Assembly: GCA_037142615.1 (NCBI GenBank)
Contig: JBAXAI010000006.1
Coordinates: 64,001-128,000, forward strand
Reading direction: 5' to 3'
DNA from: Spirochaetales bacterium
GTDB taxonomy: Bacteria; Spirochaetota; Spirochaetia; JABEVK01
DNA: 64,000 nt
Position 1 is the stretch's first letter, and every line of letters begins with the position of its first letter. Positions 52,896 to 61,442 of the stretch are shown here, one piece after another. The notes below the pieces were generated by a model, which saw only the letters and a program-made list of their open reading frames with translations, had not been told where the DNA came from and did not search any database. The translations under genes and the position numbers were made by a program.

Positions 52896-53873
52896 CTAAG
52901 GTCGCGCTTCGGTGGTCGTGATCCTCTGGCTGATCTGCGTGCCGGCTTTTCCCGCGATGGCGTCGAGCATGCGGTCGAGGGTCGTGATGATGGCCGTTCC
53001 CTCGGGGTGGGCTCCCGTGTACTTCACAGTGGCCATGACCTTTTCGAGCATGCTGCCCTTGGCGAAGTAGCCGTTGTCGCAGCGTTCCTTGGCCTCGGTG
53101 TAGGTCAATTTGGCCAAGCGCCTCTCGGTAGGTTTTCCAAAGTCGAGGGCGATGCCGTCGCCTCCAGCCGTGGGAATCACAAGGTAGTCGGCGCGCAACA
53201 GGGTGGCCAGCAGCGCAGAGGTGAGGTCTTTGTCGATCACGCCCTCGATTCCGTTGAGGATGTTGCCCTCGCGGACCACAGGCACCCCGCCTCCCCCACA
53301 CGCGATCACCAGATAGCCGTCTTCCGAGAGCTTCTGGATCTGCCGTAGCTCGACCAGTTCGAGCGGCGCCGGCGAGGGCACACAACGGCGCCAGCCCCGT
53401 CCGGAGTCTTCCATGACCGTCCAGCCCATTTCTTGGGCCAGGTGCTCGGCAGCCTCTTTGTCGTAGAACGAGCCGATAGGCTTGGAAGGGTTGGCAAACG
53501 CAGCATCGTCTTTGCTGACAACGGTTTGTGTGATCACGGTGGCCACGGGAATGTCGAGCCCTTCCATCGCGAACGCCTCGTGGAAGGCCTTCTGGAACAT
53601 GTAGCCGAGCGTACCTTGGGTGTTGGCAATGGCGTAGTCCATGGGCACCGGCGCCAACTCCTTGGCGGCCAGTTCGGAGCGGCGCAGAGCGAAGCCCACC
53701 TGCGGGCCATTACCGTGGGTGAGCACGACCCGCCAACCTTCCTTGACCAGTTTGACCACCGAGGCGGCGGTTTGTTCGGCGGCCTCGAATTGGTCGGCGA
53801 TCGAGGCCTTCTTGGGGTCCTTGATGAGGGCGTTTCCTCCGACGGCGATGACGACGAGTTTGGTGTTGGCCAT
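52896..53873 (-). CDS. arcC: Carbamate kinase
   Basis: AVGGNAL, THGNGPQVG, PSKPIG, EDSGRGWRRCVPSP, GGGGVPV, VIDKD, GSMLEKV. Confidence 0.95.
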   Translation of the reverse strand: MANTKLVVIAVGGNALIKDPKKASIADQFEAAEQTAASVVKLVKEGWRVVLTHGNGPQVGFALRRSELAAKELAPVPMDYAIANTQGTLGYMFQKAFHEAFAMEGLDIPVATVITQTVVSKDDAAFANPSKPIGSFYDKEAAEHLAQEMGWTVMEDSGRGWRRCVPSPAPLELVELRQIQKLSEDGYLVIACGGGGVPVVREGNILNGIEGVIDKDLTSALLATLLRADYLVIPTAGGDGIALDFGKPTERRLAKLTYTEAKERCDNGYFAKGSMLEKVMATVKYTGAHPEGTAIITTLDRMLDAIAGKAGTQISQRITTTEARP

Positions 53874-53874
53874 G

Positions 53875-55287
53875 TCATTGAACTCCTTTGAGAGCAAGAG
53901 CCTCGAGGGCCTGAACAAAGCAGGCCAACGGGGCATTGGTGATACCGGCACCGATTTGTCCGATGCCGGCCTGCTGGTGCGCGATGCCGGTGTTGATCAC
54001 TGGCAAAATGGACGTGTCGACCACCTTGCGGGCGTCAATACCGGCTGGACAACCCCCGAAGTCGAGCGGCGGCAGGGTGAAGGCCGCGTTCTGTCCCAGG
54101 GTGATGTGGAGCATGCGTCGGGTGTTGGCGATAGCGTCGGCCGGGGTTCCCCCGACAAACTGCACGATGGCAGGCGAGGCGGCCATCGAAAAGCCGCCCA
54201 ACCCGGCGGTCTCGGTGATGGCGCTATCGCCCAGGTCGCGTGCCGCGTCGTCGCGGCTGTAGCCCGAAAAGTACAAGCCCTCGATGAAGTTGGCCGGTGC
54301 TGTGAACCACTGGCCCGGAAGACCCGACAACTGAATGCCGAAATCGACCCCGTTGCGCGCCATCACCGTCACCAGCGTGGAGTTCTTGACGCCCTCTGCG
54401 GCTTGCAACATGCCCTTGCACGCGGCCATCGACAGGTTGAGGAAGAAGTGGTCGTTGGAGGCCACAAAGGCCAAGGTCTCGCGCACCTTCTGCAGGTCGA
54501 GCGACGGAAGCTCACCCAGAGCGGCCAAGGTCAGCTTTTTGAAGAACAGAGCGCTGGCCGCGGCGTTGCGGTTGTGCACCTCGTCGCCCATGTGGAGCGC
54601 CTGCGCCATCAGGGGCTTGAGCGCTACCGGCCCCAGGCTTGCCAGGATAACCTTCAGGGTCGGGGCCAGCACGTCGCGCATCCACACCAAGCGCTCGAGC
54701 ACTTCGGGCGAGTTGGCCCCGAAGCGCAGCACTTTGCCCAAGCCTTCGTTCAGGTTGCAGTACGATCGGTGGCCGTTGGTCGTGTTTTCGACGATCCACA
54801 CCGGCATCGAGGGGCTGATGACTCCGGCCATAGGGCCGACGGCGTTGTGGTGGTTGCAGGCATCGAGATTCACCCCGCCGCCGACCACCAGCGCCTCGGC
54901 CTCGCCCAGCGTTTTGGCCCAGCCTTCGTACAAAATGGCTCCGAGCACCGCTCCCTTTTGAGGGCCACACATGGCACTCCACGAAATGGGGGGTCCCGAA
55001 TGCAGCAAGGTTCGGGCACCAAAACCCGGGAGTTCGTCGCGCGCCACTCCGAGCCCCACCAGCACCGGCTGGGCGCTCAGATAGCGCTCGTAGGCCGTCT
55101 GGTTGGCGGCATTTACTTGGGGATGGTTGATCAGCTCAGCCAGCGCCATTCCAGCCTGACTATTGCCTTCAGCCGGGGGTCGCCACTCGAGGTCGAGGGC
55201 CGTTCCTCCGTGGGCGCGGATCGGCTCACTGAACGACTTCAGCCCGATATTGATCACCCGGATTTCACTCGACAGCAGGGGATTCAT
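53875..55287 (-). CDS. yahG: DUF1116 protein (YahG/YlbE-AllG-like carbamoyltransferase subunit)
   Basis: HSGPP, AVGPMAG, NEGLGKVLRFGA, MGDEVHNRN, DLGDSAITET, INTGIAH. N-terminal INIGL..WRPPA segment as in YahG. Confidence 0.88.
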   Translation of the reverse strand: MNPLLSSEIRVINIGLKSFSEPIRAHGGTALDLEWRPPAEGNSQAGMALAELINHPQVNAANQTAYERYLSAQPVLVGLGVARDELPGFGARTLLHSGPPISWSAMCGPQKGAVLGAILYEGWAKTLGEAEALVVGGGVNLDACNHHNAVGPMAGVISPSMPVWIVENTTNGHRSYCNLNEGLGKVLRFGANSPEVLERLVWMRDVLAPTLKVILASLGPVALKPLMAQALHMGDEVHNRNAAASALFFKKLTLAALGELPSLDLQKVRETLAFVASNDHFFLNLSMAACKGMLQAAEGVKNSTLVTVMARNGVDFGIQLSGLPGQWFTAPANFIEGLYFSGYSRDDAARDLGDSAITETAGLGGFSMAASPAIVQFVGGTPADAIANTRRMLHITLGQNAAFTLPPLDFGGCPAGIDARKVVDTSILPVINTGIAHQQAGIGQIGAGITNAPLACFVQALEALALKGVQ

Positions 55288-56822
55288 GCTTGGCTCCCGG
55301 CGACGAGTTGTCGCACCAGTTCGGCGGCGTGGGCATTGCTCTCGGCAACGAAAACCCCGGCGCCGCTTAAAGCCGCCCGCTGTTGGGCCAGGTTCTGGGG
55401 GTCCTTGTCGGTGCCGCAGACAAAGCCCACAAACTCCAGCTTGCGACCTTCGGCTTGGGCAACCGCCCGTGAGCGGGCGATCACCTCGACGAGGCCCGCC
55501 GCCGGGTTCTCATGCGCTCCGTAGCCGAGCACGAGGTCCAAGAGAATCAGCCCGGTCTGGGGGTCTTTTGCCTCTTGCAGCAGGCGATCGTTGCGGGTGG
55601 AAGGATCGATCATCGGGTGGGGTTTTCCGCGGGTAAAGTCGTCATCGCCCAGGTCAATCAGGGTATGACCCTGGCTCTTCCACAGGTCAGGAAGTTTTTG
55701 CACGCCTTTGGTCGGGGTATTGGAAAATACCTCACCCAGAAAAGGCTGCAGCAAAATCTGGGCCTCGTAACAGAACGTGCCGCCAGTGAAAAGTCCCCGG
55801 ACAAAGCCCGCGGCGTGGCGGCCTTCGAGCAGGGCACGGTCGCTATCGCCGCGTTCGGGGCCCGCCTTTGTTCGCTGGCCCGTCAAGAGACCGACAGCCA
55901 GCACGGCAGCCTGTTCCAGCGTCGGGGCAAAGGTCAGCTTGCCCCGAGCGGGTCTGATTTCGTCGCCGAGAAAGCAAATCACGATGGGCTTGGTGACTTT
56001 CTGCGCCTCTTCCAGAATTCTGGCAGCAACCGACTCGGCCGGCGGCTTGGAAAGCAACACAATGACCTTTGTCTTTTCGTCGGCGGCGAAGAGCCCAAGG
56101 GCAGACAGCATCGTGATGCCCCCGACTTCCTGGCTCAAGTCGTGCCCGCCGGTGCCAATGGCGTGCGAAATACCTTGCCCCAAGGAATCGATCAGGCAGG
56201 TCACCTGCTGGATGCCCGTGCCCGACGCCCCCACGACGCCGATGGCCCCGGGGGTCACCACATTGGCAAACGCCAGCGGAACCCCACCCAAGATGCTGGT
56301 ACCGCAGTCGGGGCCCATCACCAGCAAATCATGGTCGCGGGCGTAGGTCTTGAGCTTCACTTCTTGCCAACCCGGCACATTGTCGCTGAACATCATGACG
56401 TTGAGGCCCTGCTTGAGGGCCTTGAGCGCTTCGGCACCGGCAAACTCCCCGGGCGTCGAAATAAGCACCACGTTGCCAAGCGGGTCTTGTGCCAGCGCCA
56501 TCGCGATCGAGCGGGGGGGCTCGGTCTTGGCCGAAGAGTCACCGACGCCCTTCTTCTCGTCGAGGGCCTGCTGGGCAAACTCCAAAGCCGCCTGACCCTG
56601 GGCTACCGAGTTTGCCTGCACCACCACGAGCAGGTCGTTGGGTCTGGCTGCCAGCGGTTGGCTCAGCAACCCGGTGTTGAGCAGCAGGTCGAGGTTGGCG
56701 GCGGTGGCCATCTGCACCGAGGCAGATACCACGCCGTCCTGGGCGGTCAACTTGGCCGACAATTGCATCAGGGCCACCGAGTCGCGGTAGTACCCCGGCA
56801 GGAACTGCTGAACCCTCTCCAT
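55284..56822 (-). CDS. fdrA: FdrA/YahF (AllF-like) protein, succinyl-CoA-ligase-like fold
   Basis: YRDSVALM, FSDNV, MGPDCGT, GASGTG, GTGGHDL, SKPP, DLGDDDFTRGKPHPMIDP. Confidence 0.92.
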   Translation of the reverse strand: MERVQQFLPGYYRDSVALMQLSAKLTAQDGVVSASVQMATAANLDLLLNTGLLSQPLAARPNDLLVVVQANSVAQGQAALEFAQQALDEKKGVGDSSAKTEPPRSIAMALAQDPLGNVVLISTPGEFAGAEALKALKQGLNVMMFSDNVPGWQEVKLKTYARDHDLLVMGPDCGTSILGGVPLAFANVVTPGAIGVVGASGTGIQQVTCLIDSLGQGISHAIGTGGHDLSQEVGGITMLSALGLFAADEKTKVIVLLSKPPAESVAARILEEAQKVTKPIVICFLGDEIRPARGKLTFAPTLEQAAVLAVGLLTGQRTKAGPERGDSDRALLEGRHAAGFVRGLFTGGTFCYEAQILLQPFLGEVFSNTPTKGVQKLPDLWKSQGHTLIDLGDDDFTRGKPHPMIDPSTRNDRLLQEAKDPQTGLILLDLVLGYGAHENPAAGLVEVIARSRAVAQAEGRKLEFVGFVCGTDKDPQNLAQQRAALSGAGVFVAESNAHAAELVRQLVAGSQA

Positions 56823-57487
56823 CACGCCAAGGCTTCAATGATTCGCTGCGAAGGGGTGACCCAGCCGAAGATTCCGCCCTGGGCCTTGATCATCTCGAGG
56901 GCCAGCCGGTTGAACTCGGGAAAGTACGACGCCACGGCGTCGGAAGCGACCACGCACTCGTAGCCCCGATCGTTGGCTTCGCGCACGGTGGTCGTGACGC
57001 ACACCTCGGTGGTGACGCCGCAGCAGATCAGGGTCTTGATGCCGTAGTTGCGCAGAATCAGGTCGAGGTCGGTGGCGTGGAACGACCCCTTGCCGGGCTT
57101 GTCGATCACCGGCTCGCCGGGCAGGGGCTGAAGCTCGGGGATGATGCCGTGGCCTTTTTCGCCCCGGATCAGGATGCGGCCCATGGGCCCGACGTCGCCA
57201 ATGCCGGTCTTGAGGTTGCCCCGGGCTTTTTTGGTGGGCGGACAGTCCGACATTGTCGGGTCGTGGCCCTCACGGGTGTGGAGCACCCGAATTCCTGCCT
57301 TCCGGGCGGCCGTGAGCAGGGCTTGGCAGGGTCCTATCGCTGCCCGGAGCAGGGTCACGTTGTTGCCCAGCAGGGTGCCAAACCCCCCTTCTTCCACAAA
57401 GTCCCGCTGCATGTCGATCACGACCAGGGCTGTCGTTTTAGGGTCAAACTCGAGGTTGTACGGCTCGGCGACGATCTCTTTTTTCAT
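56822..57487 (-). CDS. trtA: Isochorismatase-family cysteine hydrolase, triuret hydrolase (TrtA)-type
   Basis: Triad motifs IDMQRDF, DKPGKG, TTEVC. Positions recalled as separating TrtA from BiuH are TrtA-like: GGFGxxLGN, TTE, ASYF, GGIFG. Confidence 0.75.
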
Positions 57488-57873
57488 TGGGGTGTTCCTT
57501 TCTTGCTCTGCATGTACTTGCGCCAGTCGCCAAAGTGCGAAATATCGACGTGTTCGGGTCGGATCTTGTCTTTCGGGAACAGAATACCATCCACGACACG
57601 CCCGTCTTCCAGTTCTACCGGTCCGTCGTACAGGTGAGGGGGCTCCCCGGCCTGAACCCGGTTCCAGACGTCGTCGGGAAGCCGGTAGAGCTCCCCGGCG
57701 ACAGCGACGCCGCCCTGCTGCACTTCGTACATGCCAGGGTGAACGTCGCCGATGCTGAAGACCCGGTATCTGGGCTTGGTGTAAAACTCACCCAGAAACT
57801 CCGCGCCGGCGAGGTTCTTGTGCAGGGCCAATCCCCGCATCAAGGTCCCGTTGACAAAGAGGGTCTTCGGCAT
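57484..57873 (-). CDS. Stand-alone allophanate-hydrolase C-terminal-like (GGCT-like) protein
   Basis: [42 protein letters not shown]. Confidence 0.8.
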
Positions 57874-57876
57874 GGT

Positions 57877-59469
57877 TCAGTCGTCCGCTGCTTCGCTGAC
57901 GGGCTTCCAACTGATGGCATGACCGTCTTTCTTTTCCTGGTACATAAAGTAGACAAACACCAGAGCGGCCAGAAGGTAGCCGAACGAGACTGTCGGCGAG
58001 GCATTGAAGGCCAACTGGCTTCCGTGGATGAACCCGAAGAACGACAGGACGACGGCGATGCCCGCGTAGACGGCGGCCCAGTTGAAGCGTTTTTCGATGA
58101 CGAACACACCGATGGCTCCCAGCACCAAACCAGCCAAGATGCCACCACCACCGGTCACCGAGATGCCGTTGTAGTACACGGCCGCGTTCGAGGCCATGGC
58201 CGAGGCGAGCTCGGGGCTCACGCCCTTGCCGGTGGCCACACTCACCACGTTGTTGATCTGGGTATGCAGCCAGTCAGCAATGTTGGGAACCAAGGCCAGG
58301 ATGATCGCTGGCGCATGGCGCCGGGGAGTCGCTTGAAAGGCCTGCGCCCCGATGATCAAACCAATGAACAGCAGAATCGGCAAAATCGCCACCAGCGGGA
58401 TCACCGAAAGCAGCAAGGCCGTCAGCCCAAGCATACACACCAGACCGATGGCGATGCCGGTGGCCAGCGAGTAGCCGATGCGTCCGCCGATGGCCTTCCA
58501 GCCAGGGTGGCCGATGTAAACGGCGGGAGGGAACGGGGAACCAGCGAAGGCGCCCAGAACAGCACCCGAACCGTCGGCCAGCAACACGGCGCGGAGGTTG
58601 TATTCATCCCCAGCGGTGGCGGCCGATTCCACGTTGTTCATGGCCTCGGTAAAGTTGTAAATGCCCAGCGGGATGGCGGTGACCAGCAGCGGCCACACTT
58701 GGTCCATCGAAAGCGAGAACACATCGAGGCTGAACATCGGGATGCGGAACCCAAACTGCCGGAACGAATCGCCCACGGCGGCCGGATGCATGTACTCCGA
58801 ATAGCCCGGTAGCCCCAGAAGCACGGCTCCCCAAGCCAAAATCGCCCCCACGACGACGACCGCGAGGCCGCCCGGAATGCCAAATGGCAGGCGAACGTTT
58901 CCCATCCACGAAATCATGATAATCATGAAACAGATCAGGCCGATCCAGGCCACGTCGAACATCTGGAAGGCGGGAGCCATCGAGATGAAGGTGATCGAGA
59001 TACCGGCCAGGGTGCCCAACATGGCGGCCTTTGGCGTGAACTTGCGGATGATGGGCCCCACCAGCGCACCGGCCATGACAATCAGACCGATGATGAGCGC
59101 CCACACCAAACCGAGAACCCACGCCATCACCGGATTACCGGTGGTCAAATAGGTCGGCAGCATGACGGCAAACACAACGATGAACATGTGCGGCACCGAG
59201 GGGCCGTACGGCAAAGCTGCAACCGTGTCACGCTTTTCCTTCTTGGCCTTTTGGAACGCGAGGTAGGCGTAAAAAATGTTGCCCAGCATAAGCGCCAGGC
59301 CCAAGGCAGGAAGGATGCGCCCGTAGACGGTGGCCTCCGGGATCTTGATGACGAACAGGGAAAGGCTCGTCAGGACAATGGTGTTCAAGAGGACGTTGGT
59401 AAACAGGCCGAAAAAGCCGTTTAAGTCACCCAGGACCCACAGTTTCGGTTTGGTCAGATCTTGTGCCAT
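57877..59469 (-). CDS. NCS2/AzgA-like nucleobase/ureide permease
   Basis: About 14 TMs; GDLNGFFGL, ALPYGPSVPH, NNVESA..AGDEY, YIGHPGWK. Confidence 0.85.
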   Translation of the reverse strand: MAQDLTKPKLWVLGDLNGFFGLFTNVLLNTIVLTSLSLFVIKIPEATVYGRILPALGLALMLGNIFYAYLAFQKAKKEKRDTVAALPYGPSVPHMFIVVFAVMLPTYLTTGNPVMAWVLGLVWALIIGLIVMAGALVGPIIRKFTPKAAMLGTLAGISITFISMAPAFQMFDVAWIGLICFMIIMISWMGNVRLPFGIPGGLAVVVVGAILAWGAVLLGLPGYSEYMHPAAVGDSFRQFGFRIPMFSLDVFSLSMDQVWPLLVTAIPLGIYNFTEAMNNVESAATAGDEYNLRAVLLADGSGAVLGAFAGSPFPPAVYIGHPGWKAIGGRIGYSLATGIAIGLVCMLGLTALLLSVIPLVAILPILLFIGLIIGAQAFQATPRRHAPAIILALVPNIADWLHTQINNVVSVATGKGVSPELASAMASNAAVYYNGISVTGGGGILAGLVLGAIGVFVIEKRFNWAAVYAGIAVVLSFFGFIHGSQLAFNASPTVSFGYLLAALVFVYFMYQEKKDGHAISWKPVSEAADD

Positions 59470-59515
59470 GCGAAACTCCTCTATGCGATTCATGTGCTTG
59501 CCCAGCTACGCCAGG

Positions 59516-59657
59516 ATTGTATACAATTGCTAGCGTAATCCCGGTTTTCTGCTTTGTCAATATCTTCTTGATTCTTTAGTATTATGTTGTTATATAATAC
59601 TTTAAGTATCTATCTGCGAAATTTGAGTTCCGTTCGAACAAGATTCTTTGTATACTG
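59516..59657. promoter_or_regulatory. GntR (FadR-subfamily) operators in an AT-rich divergent promoter region
   Basis: Perfect palindrome ATTGTATACAAT (59516-59527) and partial TTTGTATACT near 59648. Confidence 0.65.
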
Positions 59658-59700
59658 ATATACTGAGAACGAGCCCCGGAAGGCGGGAGGAGACCGACAA

Positions 59701-60387
59701 GTGGCCGAGAACTTGAGTGCCGACGTGTACGAACGTCTGAGCGAGCGCATCCTCAAACTGGACTATCCGCCGGGGTACCGACTGACCGAGGAAGGGTTGT
59801 GCGCCGAGTTCCAGGTGAGCCGTAGCCCGGTGCGGGAAGCGCTGAACATGCTGGTGCAGCGTGGCCTGGTCCGAAAGAATCCGCGGCAGAACTACGTGGT
59901 TCGTGAACTCGACGTCAAAGAGATCCGCGATGCCTACCACGTACGGCTCGTGCTGGAGCTTGAGGTGATGACACTCCTGTGTCGGCAGGGTGTCGACCAG
60001 GCGATCCTCGACCGGCTCGAAGCCCACTGGCTTGGCGTGCGCGACCGCTTGCCCGAGGGCATGGCGCACGCTGCCGACGACGACGAGAGGTTTCACCGCG
60101 AACTCGCCGAGGCCACGGGCAATCAAGCTCTAACCCGGACCTTGGCCGCCATCGATTCGCAGATTCACTTTGTACGCCTGTACGATATCACCAACATCGA
60201 ACGCCTTCGCCGGACCTGCACCGATCACCTGGAGATCCTCACCGCGCTGCGCCGTCAAGACCTCAAGAATGCGGTGGTCGCCTTGGCCAGGAATATCGAG
60301 TGGGCCGAGGCCAACGTCGAGGGAGCGCTCAGCGACGTGGCCTCGCGGAGCCGTGCCGGAGGGCGCGAAGGAACCTCGAGGGGCTAG
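59701..60387 (+). CDS. GntR family regulator with FCD domain
   Basis: PGYRLTE..L...FQVSRSPVREAL, DERFH, DHLEIL. GGAGGAG RBS. Confidence 0.93.
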   Translation: MAENLSADVYERLSERILKLDYPPGYRLTEEGLCAEFQVSRSPVREALNMLVQRGLVRKNPRQNYVVRELDVKEIRDAYHVRLVLELEVMTLLCRQGVDQAILDRLEAHWLGVRDRLPEGMAHAADDDERFHRELAEATGNQALTRTLAAIDSQIHFVRLYDITNIERLRRTCTDHLEILTALRRQDLKNAVVALARNIEWAEANVEGALSDVASRSRAGGREGTSRG

Positions 60388-61442
60388 TCGACCAGCCCCG
60401 CCAACTGGCCGCACGCCGCTGCGATGGATTCGCCGGCTGACCGACGAACTGTCGATACGATGCCCGCCTCGCGGAGTGCCCGCTGGAAGGCATCAAGAAC
60501 CGGCCGTGCCGACGGTGACCAACTGCCCGAAATGCCGGGGTTGTAGGGAATCAAATTGACATGAGCGTCCCGGCCGGCAACCAAGGCGATCAACTCGGCC
60601 AGTTCGCGCTCGCTGTCGTTGACTCCGGCGATCATGATGTATTCCAAGAAGAGGCGGTGGCCGGTGTTGTCTTGGTAGCGTCGAAGGGCTTCCATCAGCT
60701 TTTCGAGCGGCCAGCGCCGGCAGCCGGGCATCAGGGTGTCGCGCAGGTCCTGCCTCGGGGCGTGGAGCGAAACCGCCAGCCTGACCTTGGGAAACTCGCG
60801 CCCGAACCTTTCGATGGCCCCGACCACCCCGCAGGTCGAAACCGACAGGTAGCGCGGCGCCAACTCAAAGCGCCGCTGGTCGGTCAGGCCGCGTAGAGCC
60901 TCTGCCAGGGCCTCGAAGTTGAGCAGGGGCTCGCCCATGCCCATGAACACGACATTGCGCAACCGGCCGCCCTCAGCCCGCAGTTGCTCTACAGCCCAGG
61001 TGGCCTGTTCCAGAATCTCGGCCGCGCCCAGGTCGCGAATCAGGCCAAGGCGCCCGGTAGAGCAAAAGGCGCAGCCCAGGGCGCAGCCAATCTGGGTGCT
61101 CACACACAGGGTGTTGCGGCCCTCGCGCTGCCGGAGGAGCACCGCTTCAAACCGCTGCCCGTCGGGGGCTTCGAACAACGCCTTGGTTGAGCCATCGGCA
61201 GCGGCTTCGAGGCGTTTTGTCCTTGTGGTCTTCCACTCGAAAAGCTGGGCCACCTCAACCGCCAAGGGCTCGGGTAACCGCGCAAGGGCGGCTTCCCAGG
61301 TGACTCCCTCGCGAAAAAGCGCCTTTCTGAGCGCCGAATAGCCTTGTTGGCCTCCGGTTCGGGTTCGGAGGATGCTCAGAACGGCTCCTTCGTCATGAAA
61401 CGAAGGGCGAAGCGACCCAGAGGGCGCAGGCGGGCTGGTCAT
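60384..61442 (-). CDS. rlmN: RlmN/Cfr family radical SAM RNA methyltransferase (RlmN-like)
   Basis: CVSTQIGCALGCAFCSTG, VFMGMGEPL, SLHAP, NLIPYN, AACGQL. Confidence 0.85.
   Translation of the reverse strand: MTSPPAPSGSLRPSFHDEGAVLSILRTRTGGQQGYSALRKALFREGVTWEAALARLPEPLAVEVAQLFEWKTTRTKRLEAAADGSTKALFEAPDGQRFEAVLLRQREGRNTLCVSTQIGCALGCAFCSTGRLGLIRDLGAAEILEQATWAVEQLRAEGGRLRNVVFMGMGEPLLNFEALAEALRGLTDQRRFELAPRYLSVSTCGVVGAIERFGREFPKVRLAVSLHAPRQDLRDTLMPGCRRWPLEKLMEALRRYQDNTGHRLFLEYIMIAGVNDSERELAELIALVAGRDAHVNLIPYNPGISGSWSPSARPVLDAFQRALREAGIVSTVRRSAGESIAAACGQLAGLVD

Follow-up and report, generated by a model that had tools for sequence, protein, structure and literature searches.

A putative phosphorolytic branch of triuret catabolism encoded by an operon of TrtA-type hydrolase, FdrA, DUF1116 and carbamate kinase genes

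We analysed a six-gene operon and its divergent regulator gene, which occupy positions 52,896 to 60,387 of a 64,000-nucleotide stretch of DNA (hereafter, the window) from a Spirochaetales bacterium (assembly GCA_037142615.1, contig JBAXAI010000006.1, positions 64,001 to 128,000). The operon joins a cysteine hydrolase of the TrtA type to an FdrA-type subunit, a DUF1116 subunit and a carbamate kinase. From the comparisons described below we consider it probable, though far from assured, that it encodes a branch of triuret catabolism that works by phosphorolysis and conserves energy as ATP, in which FdrA/DUF1116 and the kinase replace the enzymes BiuH and AtzF after TrtA. Both triuret and biuret occur as impurities in fertiliser and arise from urate oxidation, and to our knowledge their known breakdown is purely hydrolytic. 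An earlier, sequence-only reading of the region had proposed that biuret, or a related ureide, is phosphorolysed here to urea and carbamoyl phosphate.

Operon layout and gene content of the genome

The six genes lie on the minus strand in the order permease, AH_C-like protein, cysteine hydrolase, FdrA, DUF1116 and carbamate kinase. The AH_C/TrtA, TrtA/FdrA and FdrA/DUF1116 junctions are 4-base overlaps and the remaining junctions are gaps of 1-3 bases, so that the operon was correctly described as tightly coupled; the gene order and the divergent GntR-family regulator were also as the sequence-only reading had them, with all seven genes found at the places it gave. The hydrolase gene (56822..57487) encodes an isochorismatase-fold protein of 221 amino acids (aa; PF00857, 2.9e-45). 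It is followed by the genes for an FdrA/AllF-like subunit resembling succinyl-CoA synthetase alpha (55284..56825; 513 aa; NF004760, 504.6 bits with a cut-off of 433) and for a DUF1116/AllG-like subunit of the long, YahG-like form (53875..55287; 470 aa; PF06545, 5.3e-93). The carbamate kinase gene (52896..53873) scored 332.1 against a cut-off of 266 for NF009007, and just under the cut-off for the equivalog model TIGR00746 (351.7 versus 358.25). Its open reading frame opens at 53951, and the likelier start is the ATG at 53873 (M27 of the frame), one base past the DUF1116 stop. Upstream of the hydrolase gene lie those for the AH_C-like protein (57484..57873; 129 aa; PF21986, 1.7e-30) and the permease (57877..59469, with an alternative start at 59493; 530-538 aa), which belongs to a widespread family without a name. 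The identities given earlier to the six genes were confirmed, with three corrections: the kinase start, the unnamed family of the permease, and the YahFG label, which applies to architecture only (see below).

The source assembly comprises 4.27 Mb and is 96.7% complete, and the whole genome contains a single gene of the TrtA/BiuH family. In profile searches of this genome, allophanate hydrolase was not found (best match 168.7 bits, cut-off 511), nor were the urease alpha subunit and urea carboxylase. The statement that the operon has neither a second, BiuH-type hydrolase nor an amidase-fold allophanate hydrolase is therefore true of the operon and also of the 96.7%-complete genome. With BiuH and AtzF missing there is no hydrolytic sink for the TrtA product, and the published hydrolytic triuret route is absent. 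The genome likewise gave no AllD equivalog (best match 140.7 bits, cut-off 496) and no allantoinase (best match 27.7 bits, cut-off 358), and thus lacks an endogenous route to oxalurate.

The hydrolase is of the TrtA type

The assignment of the hydrolase to the TrtA type was borne out by structure matches, by discriminating residues and by phylogeny. Its best matches in the PDB were the TrtA structures 6XIX and 6XJ4 (285.6 and 281 bits; ~62% identity over the aligned 212 residues), compared with 221.8 bits for the BiuH structure 6AZO and 106 bits for RutB. The Asp-Lys-Cys triad of TrtA (D24, K129 and C162) corresponds to D25, K130 and C163 of the operon hydrolase, and the substrate contacts F29, E72, K132 and Q202 correspond to F30, E73, K133 and Q203. 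PMC7948467 names this triad and these contacts, together with six positions that separate TrtA from the BiuH consensus (F35, N41, A134, E160, Y187 and I205). At these positions the operon hydrolase has F, N, S, E, Y and I, and is hence TrtA-type at five of six (F35, N41, E160, Y187 and I205). The serine at position 134 is the BiuH residue; it is common to 17 of the 81 TrtA-type rows of our alignment, and A134S was the sole non-deleterious mutant among those tested in TrtA (PMC7948467).

When the same positions were read as a motif over 99 homologues, 81 rows (the operon hydrolase and 80 relatives) had FN[A/S]EY[I/L] and 18 full-length second copies had YY[S/A]DTV, the BiuH motif. This test also told apart two paralogues on one Rhizobium leguminosarum plasmid. 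In a tree built without the Herbaspirillum TrtA sequence itself, the TrtA-motif and BiuH-motif clades each received a Shimodaira-Hasegawa-like approximate likelihood ratio test (SH-aLRT) support of 100, and the operon hydrolase fell inside the TrtA clade. It also stayed below the cut-off of the BiuH model NF050097 (274.1 versus 370), its own motif being FNSEYI. The operon hydrolase is TrtA-type, and its 62% identity and conserved motif suggest specificity for triuret.

The Herbaspirillum enzyme deamidates triuret to carboxybiuret and NH3, and carboxybiuret breaks down to biuret, its half-life being ~20 min (PMC7948467). The TrtA-(TrtB)-BiuH-AtzF route described for Herbaspirillum sp. BH-1 and R. 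leguminosarum in the same source starts from a hydrolase that is ~62% identical to ours, with the same active-site and second-shell residues, and permeases of the same unnamed family are likewise found at BiuH-type loci. That route differs in having BiuH and AtzF, in place of which the operon has FdrA/DUF1116 and the kinase.

TrtA takes one of three downstream modules

A search of species-representative genomes gave 568 TrtA relatives, and we surveyed the neighbourhoods of the best 80, scoring them by local BLAST and hidden Markov model (HMM) searches. FdrA and DUF1116 were found in 41 of the 80 loci, with the kinase in 40 of those 41, and a BiuH-motif paralogue in 19. Both modules occurred in a single locus (L044) and neither in 21, of which 10 have less than 3 kb on at least one side of TrtA. 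Among the 51 loci where each side of TrtA has 6 kb of sequence or more, FdrA and DUF1116 were present in 34, BiuH in 12, both in 1 and neither in 6. Genome-wide, 6 of the 41 FdrA-type genomes had a BiuH match above the cut-off and 10 an AtzF match (absent from 35 and 31, respectively); in a comparison set of nine BiuH-type genomes, BiuH was found in all nine and AtzF in eight. Of the features that the sequence-only reading had suggested surveying, synteny of trtA with yahFG-like genes was seen in 41 loci (40 with the kinase) and absence of biuH in 35 of 41 genomes, and the comparative genomics fits its proposal that FdrA/DUF1116 and the kinase stand in for hydrolytic BiuH and AtzF. The surveyed taxa span Alpha-, Beta- and Gammaproteobacteria, Chloroflexota, Actinomycetota, Verrucomicrobiota, Bacillota and other taxa; seven Mycobacterium-type genomes (Actinomycetota) had a minimal trtA-fdrA-DUF1116-kinase operon.

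A further context was seen in five loci (L038, L058, L063, L069 and L086), where TrtA and the unnamed permease are joined by an AtzE-family amidohydrolase, often with AtzF, and by neither BiuH nor FdrA. In the first four of these the protein scored 637-688 as an AtzE-family carboxybiuret amidase (NCBIfam cut-off 461), which suggests a triuret route via carboxybiuret hydrolysis. Pseudomonas sp. ADP handles carboxybiuret by AtzE/AtzG-AtzH without passing through biuret; unlike the route proposed here, this system is hydrolytic and conserves no energy, and the operon has no AtzE-family gene. TrtA thus takes one of three interchangeable downstream modules: BiuH(+AtzF), AtzE(+AtzF), or FdrA/DUF1116 with the kinase.

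One locus departed from these patterns. In L022 (8655-13500), a carbamate kinase gene is divergent from TrtA and the permease, FdrA/DUF1116 was not found within 10 kb, and transposase genes directly follow the permease gene, so that the locus is possibly a rearranged remnant.

The FdrA/DUF1116 pair and its relation to AllFGH and YahFG

Sequence identity of the FdrA subunit of the operon is 42% with YahF and 43% with AllF; that of the DUF1116 subunit is 48% with YahG (461 aa aligned) and 52% with AllG (378 aa aligned); and that of the kinase is 38% with AllK. The first ~50 residues of the DUF1116 protein match the C-terminal tail of AllF. Of the YahFG label, the architecture of a short FdrA and a long DUF1116 subunit stood (513 and 470 aa, aligning over their full length with YahF and YahG), whereas orthology did not: in the DUF1116 tree the operon copy belongs to a 36-row clade of which all rows are TrtA-linked (SH-aLRT 96), and E. 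coli YahG groups with a paralogue from contig C43 of the same genome, L077 and L044 (SH-aLRT 92). AllG falls with five further rows that are linked to TrtA. Because this tree has long E. coli branches, the rejection of YahG orthology is not strong. The E. coli yahEFGIJ cluster, of unknown function, resembles the operon in its FdrA (~515 aa) and DUF1116 (~470 aa) proteins and in a carbamate-kinase-like neighbour; it differs in that identities are only 42-48% and that YahE (DUF2877) and the amidohydrolase YahJ have no counterpart in the operon.

The only characterised member of the FdrA/DUF1116 family acts on oxalurate (PMC11326118). The operon and E. coli AllFGH with AllK (PMC11326118, PMC9843812) have in common the FdrA-type and DUF1116 subunits side by side and an adjacent carbamate kinase, and they would share the logic by which an N-carbamoyl compound and inorganic phosphate (Pi) give carbamoyl phosphate and then ATP. 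They differ in that the operon has no AllH/DUF2877, that the genome has no allantoin-to-oxalurate genes, and that the DUF1116 protein is long and falls in a separate clade. The coupling to TrtA makes a substrate different from oxalurate likely. In FdrA, His403 of the motif G-x-P-H-P-M-I-D is invariant in an alignment of 45 homologues and is a candidate for the catalytic residue. FdrA would run the reaction 'activated acyl + Pi -> acyl phosphate' if it works like succinyl-CoA synthetase alpha, to which it is related in fold.

The E. coli oxamic transcarbamylase is said to require AllF, AllG and AllH (PMC11326118). We scored AllH with a local HMM from 25 seeds, as BLAST with one AllH probe had missed divergent copies. 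AllH was missing from 10 of the 41 FdrA-type loci, and seven of those ten genomes, all Mycobacterium-type, have no AllH anywhere; a two-subunit enzyme that works without AllH is thus likely in some lineages. We also considered the AH_C-like protein as a stand-in for AllH and rejected it, since nine of the ten AllH-less FdrA-type loci are also without AH_C.

Contig C43 of the source genome carries a second FdrA-DUF1116 cluster (locus L010:6819-15423), which includes the only AllH gene of the genome and a carbamate kinase gene. It also encodes a cyclase-family protein, a 228 aa protein, a thiolase-like protein, a DUF35-type zinc-ribbon protein and a GntR/FCD regulator. In a reciprocal survey of 80 metagenome loci matched with the operon DUF1116 protein, 54 were like the operon copy (window-type) and 26 like the C43 paralogue. 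TrtA was present in 19 of the 25 informative window-type loci. Among the C43-type loci, a gene of the TrtA/BiuH family lay nearby in one of nine informative loci (L161; 54% identical to the operon TrtA and not motif-typed) and a kinase gene in 2 of 26.

Permease and AH_C-like protein

The permease gave no match in Pfam and NCBIfam searches even at E<=10, and its nearest named Atlas cluster, Xan_ur_permease at 0.89, serves as a lead only. Its AlphaFold2 model (predicted local distance difference test score 83) was compared with the PDB by Foldseek and matched SLC26, SVCT1, UraA and AZG structures at E-values of 1e-7 to 1e-5 and template modelling (TM) scores of 0.45-0.6; the modelled fold is the 7+7 inverted repeat of the UraA/SLC26/SLC23/AzgA kind. 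Homologues of the permease adjoin TrtA in 61 of the 80 loci, in FdrA-type and BiuH-type contexts alike. Because the family accompanies TrtA in all locus types, it is likely a ureide importer, and the permease of the operon probably takes up triuret or a related ureide.

The AH_C-like protein matches only the last ~125 positions of allophanate hydrolase models (AH_C/GGACT fold). Among the 41 FdrA-type loci, a stand-alone AH_C was present in 19 and a full AtzF in six, and the two never occurred together, which suggests that both serve the same step. The AH_C-like protein is probably a decarboxylase of an N-carboxy ureide, such as carboxybiuret, allophanate or N-carboxycarbamate. Three Chloroflexota loci (L034, L044 and L057) encode orthologues 57% identical to it immediately upstream of TrtA-BiuH, and a stand-alone AH_C occurs in 6 of the 19 BiuH-type loci.

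In 9 of the 19 BiuH-type loci (L032, L040, L045, L049, L053, L065, L066, L081 and L085), compared with 1 of the 41 FdrA-type loci, TrtA/BiuH is followed by a small gene for a ChrR-like cupin, and another such gene lies next to atzD on a Rhizobium plasmid (L182:8656-9009). The ChrR-like cupin and the stand-alone AH_C are both candidate folds for the carboxybiuret decarboxylase TrtB. No NCBIfam model bears that name and our literature search gave no text on its fold, and we do not equate the AH_C-like protein with TrtB.

Proposed pathway and carbamoyl donor

With BiuH and AtzF missing, and with near-exclusive modules beside TrtA, FdrA/DUF1116 and the kinase most likely take the place of BiuH and AtzF. 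In the proposed pathway, the permease would import triuret or a close ureide, and the hydrolase would deamidate triuret to carboxybiuret and NH3, as the Herbaspirillum enzyme does. FdrA/DUF1116, with no AllH in the operon, would then move the terminal carbamoyl group of the TrtA-derived ureide onto phosphate. Finally the kinase would, by its family function, convert carbamoyl phosphate and ADP into ATP and carbamate, which decays to NH3 and CO2.

Two compounds may serve as the carbamoyl donor. Carboxybiuret could be converted to allophanate. Allophanate would in turn be processed by AtzF in the genomes that have it, maybe by the AH_C-like protein, or by a second phosphorolysis to carbamate. 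Alternatively, carboxybiuret could be decarboxylated to biuret, the phosphorolysis of which would give urea. Carboxybiuret is oxalurate with one inserted NH and allophanate is oxalurate minus one carbonyl, while biuret is neutral. Conversion of carboxybiuret to allophanate fits the data at least as well as conversion of biuret to urea. Should the phosphorolytic model hold, we would give carboxybiuret about half of the weight and biuret somewhat less, the small rest falling to both compounds or to another TrtA product. In its most complete form, a carboxybiuret:phosphate carbamoyltransferase would act on carboxybiuret and then on allophanate, which would yield 4 NH3, 3 CO2 and up to 2 ATP per triuret without BiuH, AtzF or urease, would exist in a two-subunit form in some lineages and would explain the E. 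coli operon described below; this fully phosphorolytic route is a tentative proposal, which we hold to be possible rather than probable.

Six FdrA-type loci encode a full AtzF (amidase and AH_C, as checked in L028) without BiuH, which suggests that allophanate is formed and hence that carboxybiuret donates the carbamoyl group. The separate occurrence of AtzF and stand-alone AH_C in FdrA-type loci, and the genomes without urease, also favour carboxybiuret. Urease scored over its cut-off in 27 of the 41 FdrA-type genomes, was found in two pieces in one and was absent from 13; urease, AtzF and BiuH were absent together from 11. Urea would therefore be a dead end in these 11, in the source genome and in the E. 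coli chromosome that carries the operon. In two Burkholderiales genomes with the layout AtzF-TrtA-AllH-FdrA-DUF1116-kinase (G003 with locus L013, and G013 with locus L026), a urease alpha gene lies within ~2 kb of the locus edge on the same contig, which speaks for biuret as the donor. By hand count, FdrA-type genomes with AH_C were 14 with and 5 without urease, and those with neither AH_C nor AtzF were 8 with and 6 without. There is no clear association between urease and AH_C, and the substrate is not settled by it.

A related operon in E. coli and published co-locations

Of 5426 complete E. coli genomes, 1560 (~29%) carry an operon of the type described here, at 1502 chromosomal places and 127 on plasmids. 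It encodes a TrtA-motif cysteine hydrolase, AllH, FdrA, DUF1116, ArcC, an AH_C-like protein, an NCS1 permease and a LysR regulator. Carriers include IncF plasmids of poultry isolates (e.g. pACN001-B, L181) and the chromosome of the BL21-derived strain BAP1 (L183), where the operon lies between ysgA and metE. Identities to the source operon are 71% for TrtA, 62% for DUF1116, 53% for the kinase, 49% for FdrA and 41% for AH_C, and the TrtA motif is complete. Urease, AtzF and BiuH were not found in the complete BAP1 chromosome. By its sequence, this operon is a third, uncharacterised FdrA system of E. coli beside all and yah.

PMC12928451 (2026) lists this E. coli region as 'GR 29', without a function and with pyrimidine use as a suggestion. 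The island shares the operon type and the full TrtA motif with the operon of the window; it differs in having an AllH subunit of its own, an NCS1 permease where the latter has the 7+7-fold permease, and a LysR regulator in place of GntR. In loci of comammox Nitrospira and archaeal ammonia oxidisers, likewise, a TrtA/BiuH-family hydrolase gene adjoins genes for FdrA, DUF1116 and carbamate kinase, with the differences that biuH and atzF are retained and that PMC12625717 treats allFGHK as oxalurate degradation. The co-location itself has thus been published, and is read in these two sources as separate oxalurate or pyrimidine and triuret functions. In a limited literature search, we found no paper proposing a coupling of TrtA to FdrA or the phosphorolysis of a triuret-derived ureide.

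Regulator, promoter region and flanking gene

The divergent gene (59701..60387, plus strand) encodes a GntR-family regulator with an FCD ligand-binding domain (PF00392, 9.4e-18; PF07729, 5.2e-17), and GntR genes lie beside TrtA in 15 of the 80 related loci. A 207-base spacer (59494..59700) separates regulator and operon and forms the divergent promoter region. Read by eye, it contains a perfect 12-base palindrome, ATTGTATACAAT, at 59516-59527 and a related half-site, TTGTATAC, at 59648-59655; an automated repeat search of the region reported no inverted repeat, though the palindrome is visible by eye. Both elements resemble GntR/FadR-type operators and are candidate operator sites. On the opposite strand, a gene for an RlmN/Cfr-family radical SAM methyltransferase (60384-61442, minus strand) overlaps the end of the regulator gene by 4 bases. 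It scored 283 against the RlmN cut-off of 290 and far below the Cfr cut-offs.

Discussion

Several observations weigh against a phosphorolytic branch of triuret catabolism. AllH, which is reported as required in E. coli (PMC11326118), was not found in the operon, and the only PF11392 match of the genome is the one on contig C43, in an unrelated cluster. The substrate table published for TrtA covers eight compound classes (PMC7948467), and substrates such as oxaluramide are not among them. Comammox loci keep trtA, biuH and atzF together with allFGHK (PMC12625717), and 6 of the 41 FdrA-type genomes carry BiuH elsewhere. TrtA was not found in 6 of the 25 informative window-type DUF1116 loci, which have other neighbours (e.g. 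amidohydrolase-family genes). The 80 TrtA loci were those most similar to the query and no random draw from the 568, and most of the genomes are metagenome bins of unknown completeness, which makes 'absent' a soft score. The contrast between FdrA+DUF1116 and BiuH next to TrtA gave a Fisher p of 2.7e-6, which overstates independence, since the counts are of sequences and not of events and three changes of the module label suffice on the TrtA tree.

Much of the same evidence bears on other explanations, the closest of which overlaps with the proposed model and differs in the donor. Carboxybiuret would here be decarboxylated, spontaneously or by the AH_C-like protein, and FdrA/DUF1116 would be a biuret:phosphate carbamoyltransferase yielding urea, carbamoyl phosphate and 1 ATP per triuret. 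The AH_C-like gene lies directly upstream of trtA and its close orthologues have the same position in the TrtA-BiuH loci L034, L044 and L057, where a carboxybiuret decarboxylase would make sense; the decay of carboxybiuret (PMC7948467) and the urease of most FdrA-type genomes also speak for this explanation. Yet urease and AtzF are missing from the source genome, which has no urea carboxylase either, and from the BAP1 chromosome, and in these two, as in the 11 FdrA-type genomes without urease, AtzF and BiuH, half of the remaining nitrogen would be lost as urea, which is wasteful. E. coli is not known to use the oxamate from its allantoin route, and a loss of this kind is therefore tolerable. 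Two further points count against biuret: an enzyme that accepts neutral biuret should also accept triuret, which would make TrtA needless, and the AtzF of six FdrA-type loci would have no substrate. Taking these points together, we hold the biuret version conceivable but doubtful. A different identity of the hydrolase substrate is the next possibility, namely that the enzyme deamidates another purine- or pyrimidine-derived ureide amide (e.g. oxalurate amide or a pyrimidine ring-opening product) and that the resulting carboxylate feeds FdrA/DUF1116. The logic of an amidase that makes an anionic N-carbamoyl substrate is independent of triuret, the E. coli operon includes a gene for an NCS1 'cytosine permease', PMC12928451 ties that operon to RutB-like and CodB-like functions and suggests pyrimidine use, and the TrtA substrate table is limited to its eight compound classes (PMC7948467). 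This explanation is nevertheless unlikely, as the triuret-specificity residues are all kept in the operon hydrolase, in E. coli B and in 80 of 80 relatives, barring the neutral A134S; as members of the TrtA clade are also found paired with the biuret, carboxybiuret and allophanate enzymes BiuH, AtzE and AtzF; and as RutB is a far weaker match (106 bits).

The published reading amounts to two independent pathways side by side, with FdrA/DUF1116 and the kinase forming an oxamic transcarbamylase that acts on imported oxalurate while triuret is handled separately. The Pfam and NCBIfam names of the proteins (AllG and FdrA), the oxalurate activity of the sole characterised member (PMC11326118), and the comammox and archaeal ammonia oxidiser loci, in which allFGHK near trtA, biuH and atzF is taken as oxalurate degradation and the full hydrolytic route is also present (PMC12625717), favour this reading. 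Against it stand the 4-base overlaps within one operon and the lack of an AllD equivalog and an allantoinase in the genome, and it would leave the triuret route here incomplete for lack of BiuH and AtzF, as it would in 35 (BiuH) and 31 (AtzF) of 41 genomes. The near-exclusive occurrence of FdrA+DUF1116 or BiuH beside TrtA, the separation of the DUF1116 clade from AllG and the missing AllH also argue against it, and we regard two separate pathways as quite unlikely. The system could in principle run in the anabolic direction, with the kinase trapping carbamate as carbamoyl phosphate and FdrA/DUF1116 carbamoylating an acceptor in salvage or biosynthesis. Both reactions are reversible, the published assay of the E. 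coli oxamic transcarbamylase ran in the direction of synthesis (PMC11326118), and L022 has a kinase beside TrtA with no FdrA/DUF1116 in 10 kb. As genes that produce an acceptor or use a product are not conserved in the 41 loci, as a permease and a catabolic hydrolase form a degradative context, and as L022 is maybe a rearranged remnant, an anabolic role seems very improbable.

If the phosphorolytic branch after TrtA is real, the carbamoyl phosphate route would conserve energy by substrate-level phosphorylation, and nitrogen would be freed in organisms that have neither urease nor allophanate hydrolase. The FdrA/DUF1116 transcarbamylase family, a recent discovery, would gain a second substrate and would be shown to be able to act without AllH. 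The allFGHK genes next to trtA/biuH in nitrifier genomes would then be read differently. Because the operon is present in a BL21-derived laboratory strain, the hypothesis is directly testable by ordinary genetics and enzyme assays, and if it holds, a function would be assigned to an operon carried on the chromosomes and plasmids of 1560 of 5426 complete E. coli genomes.

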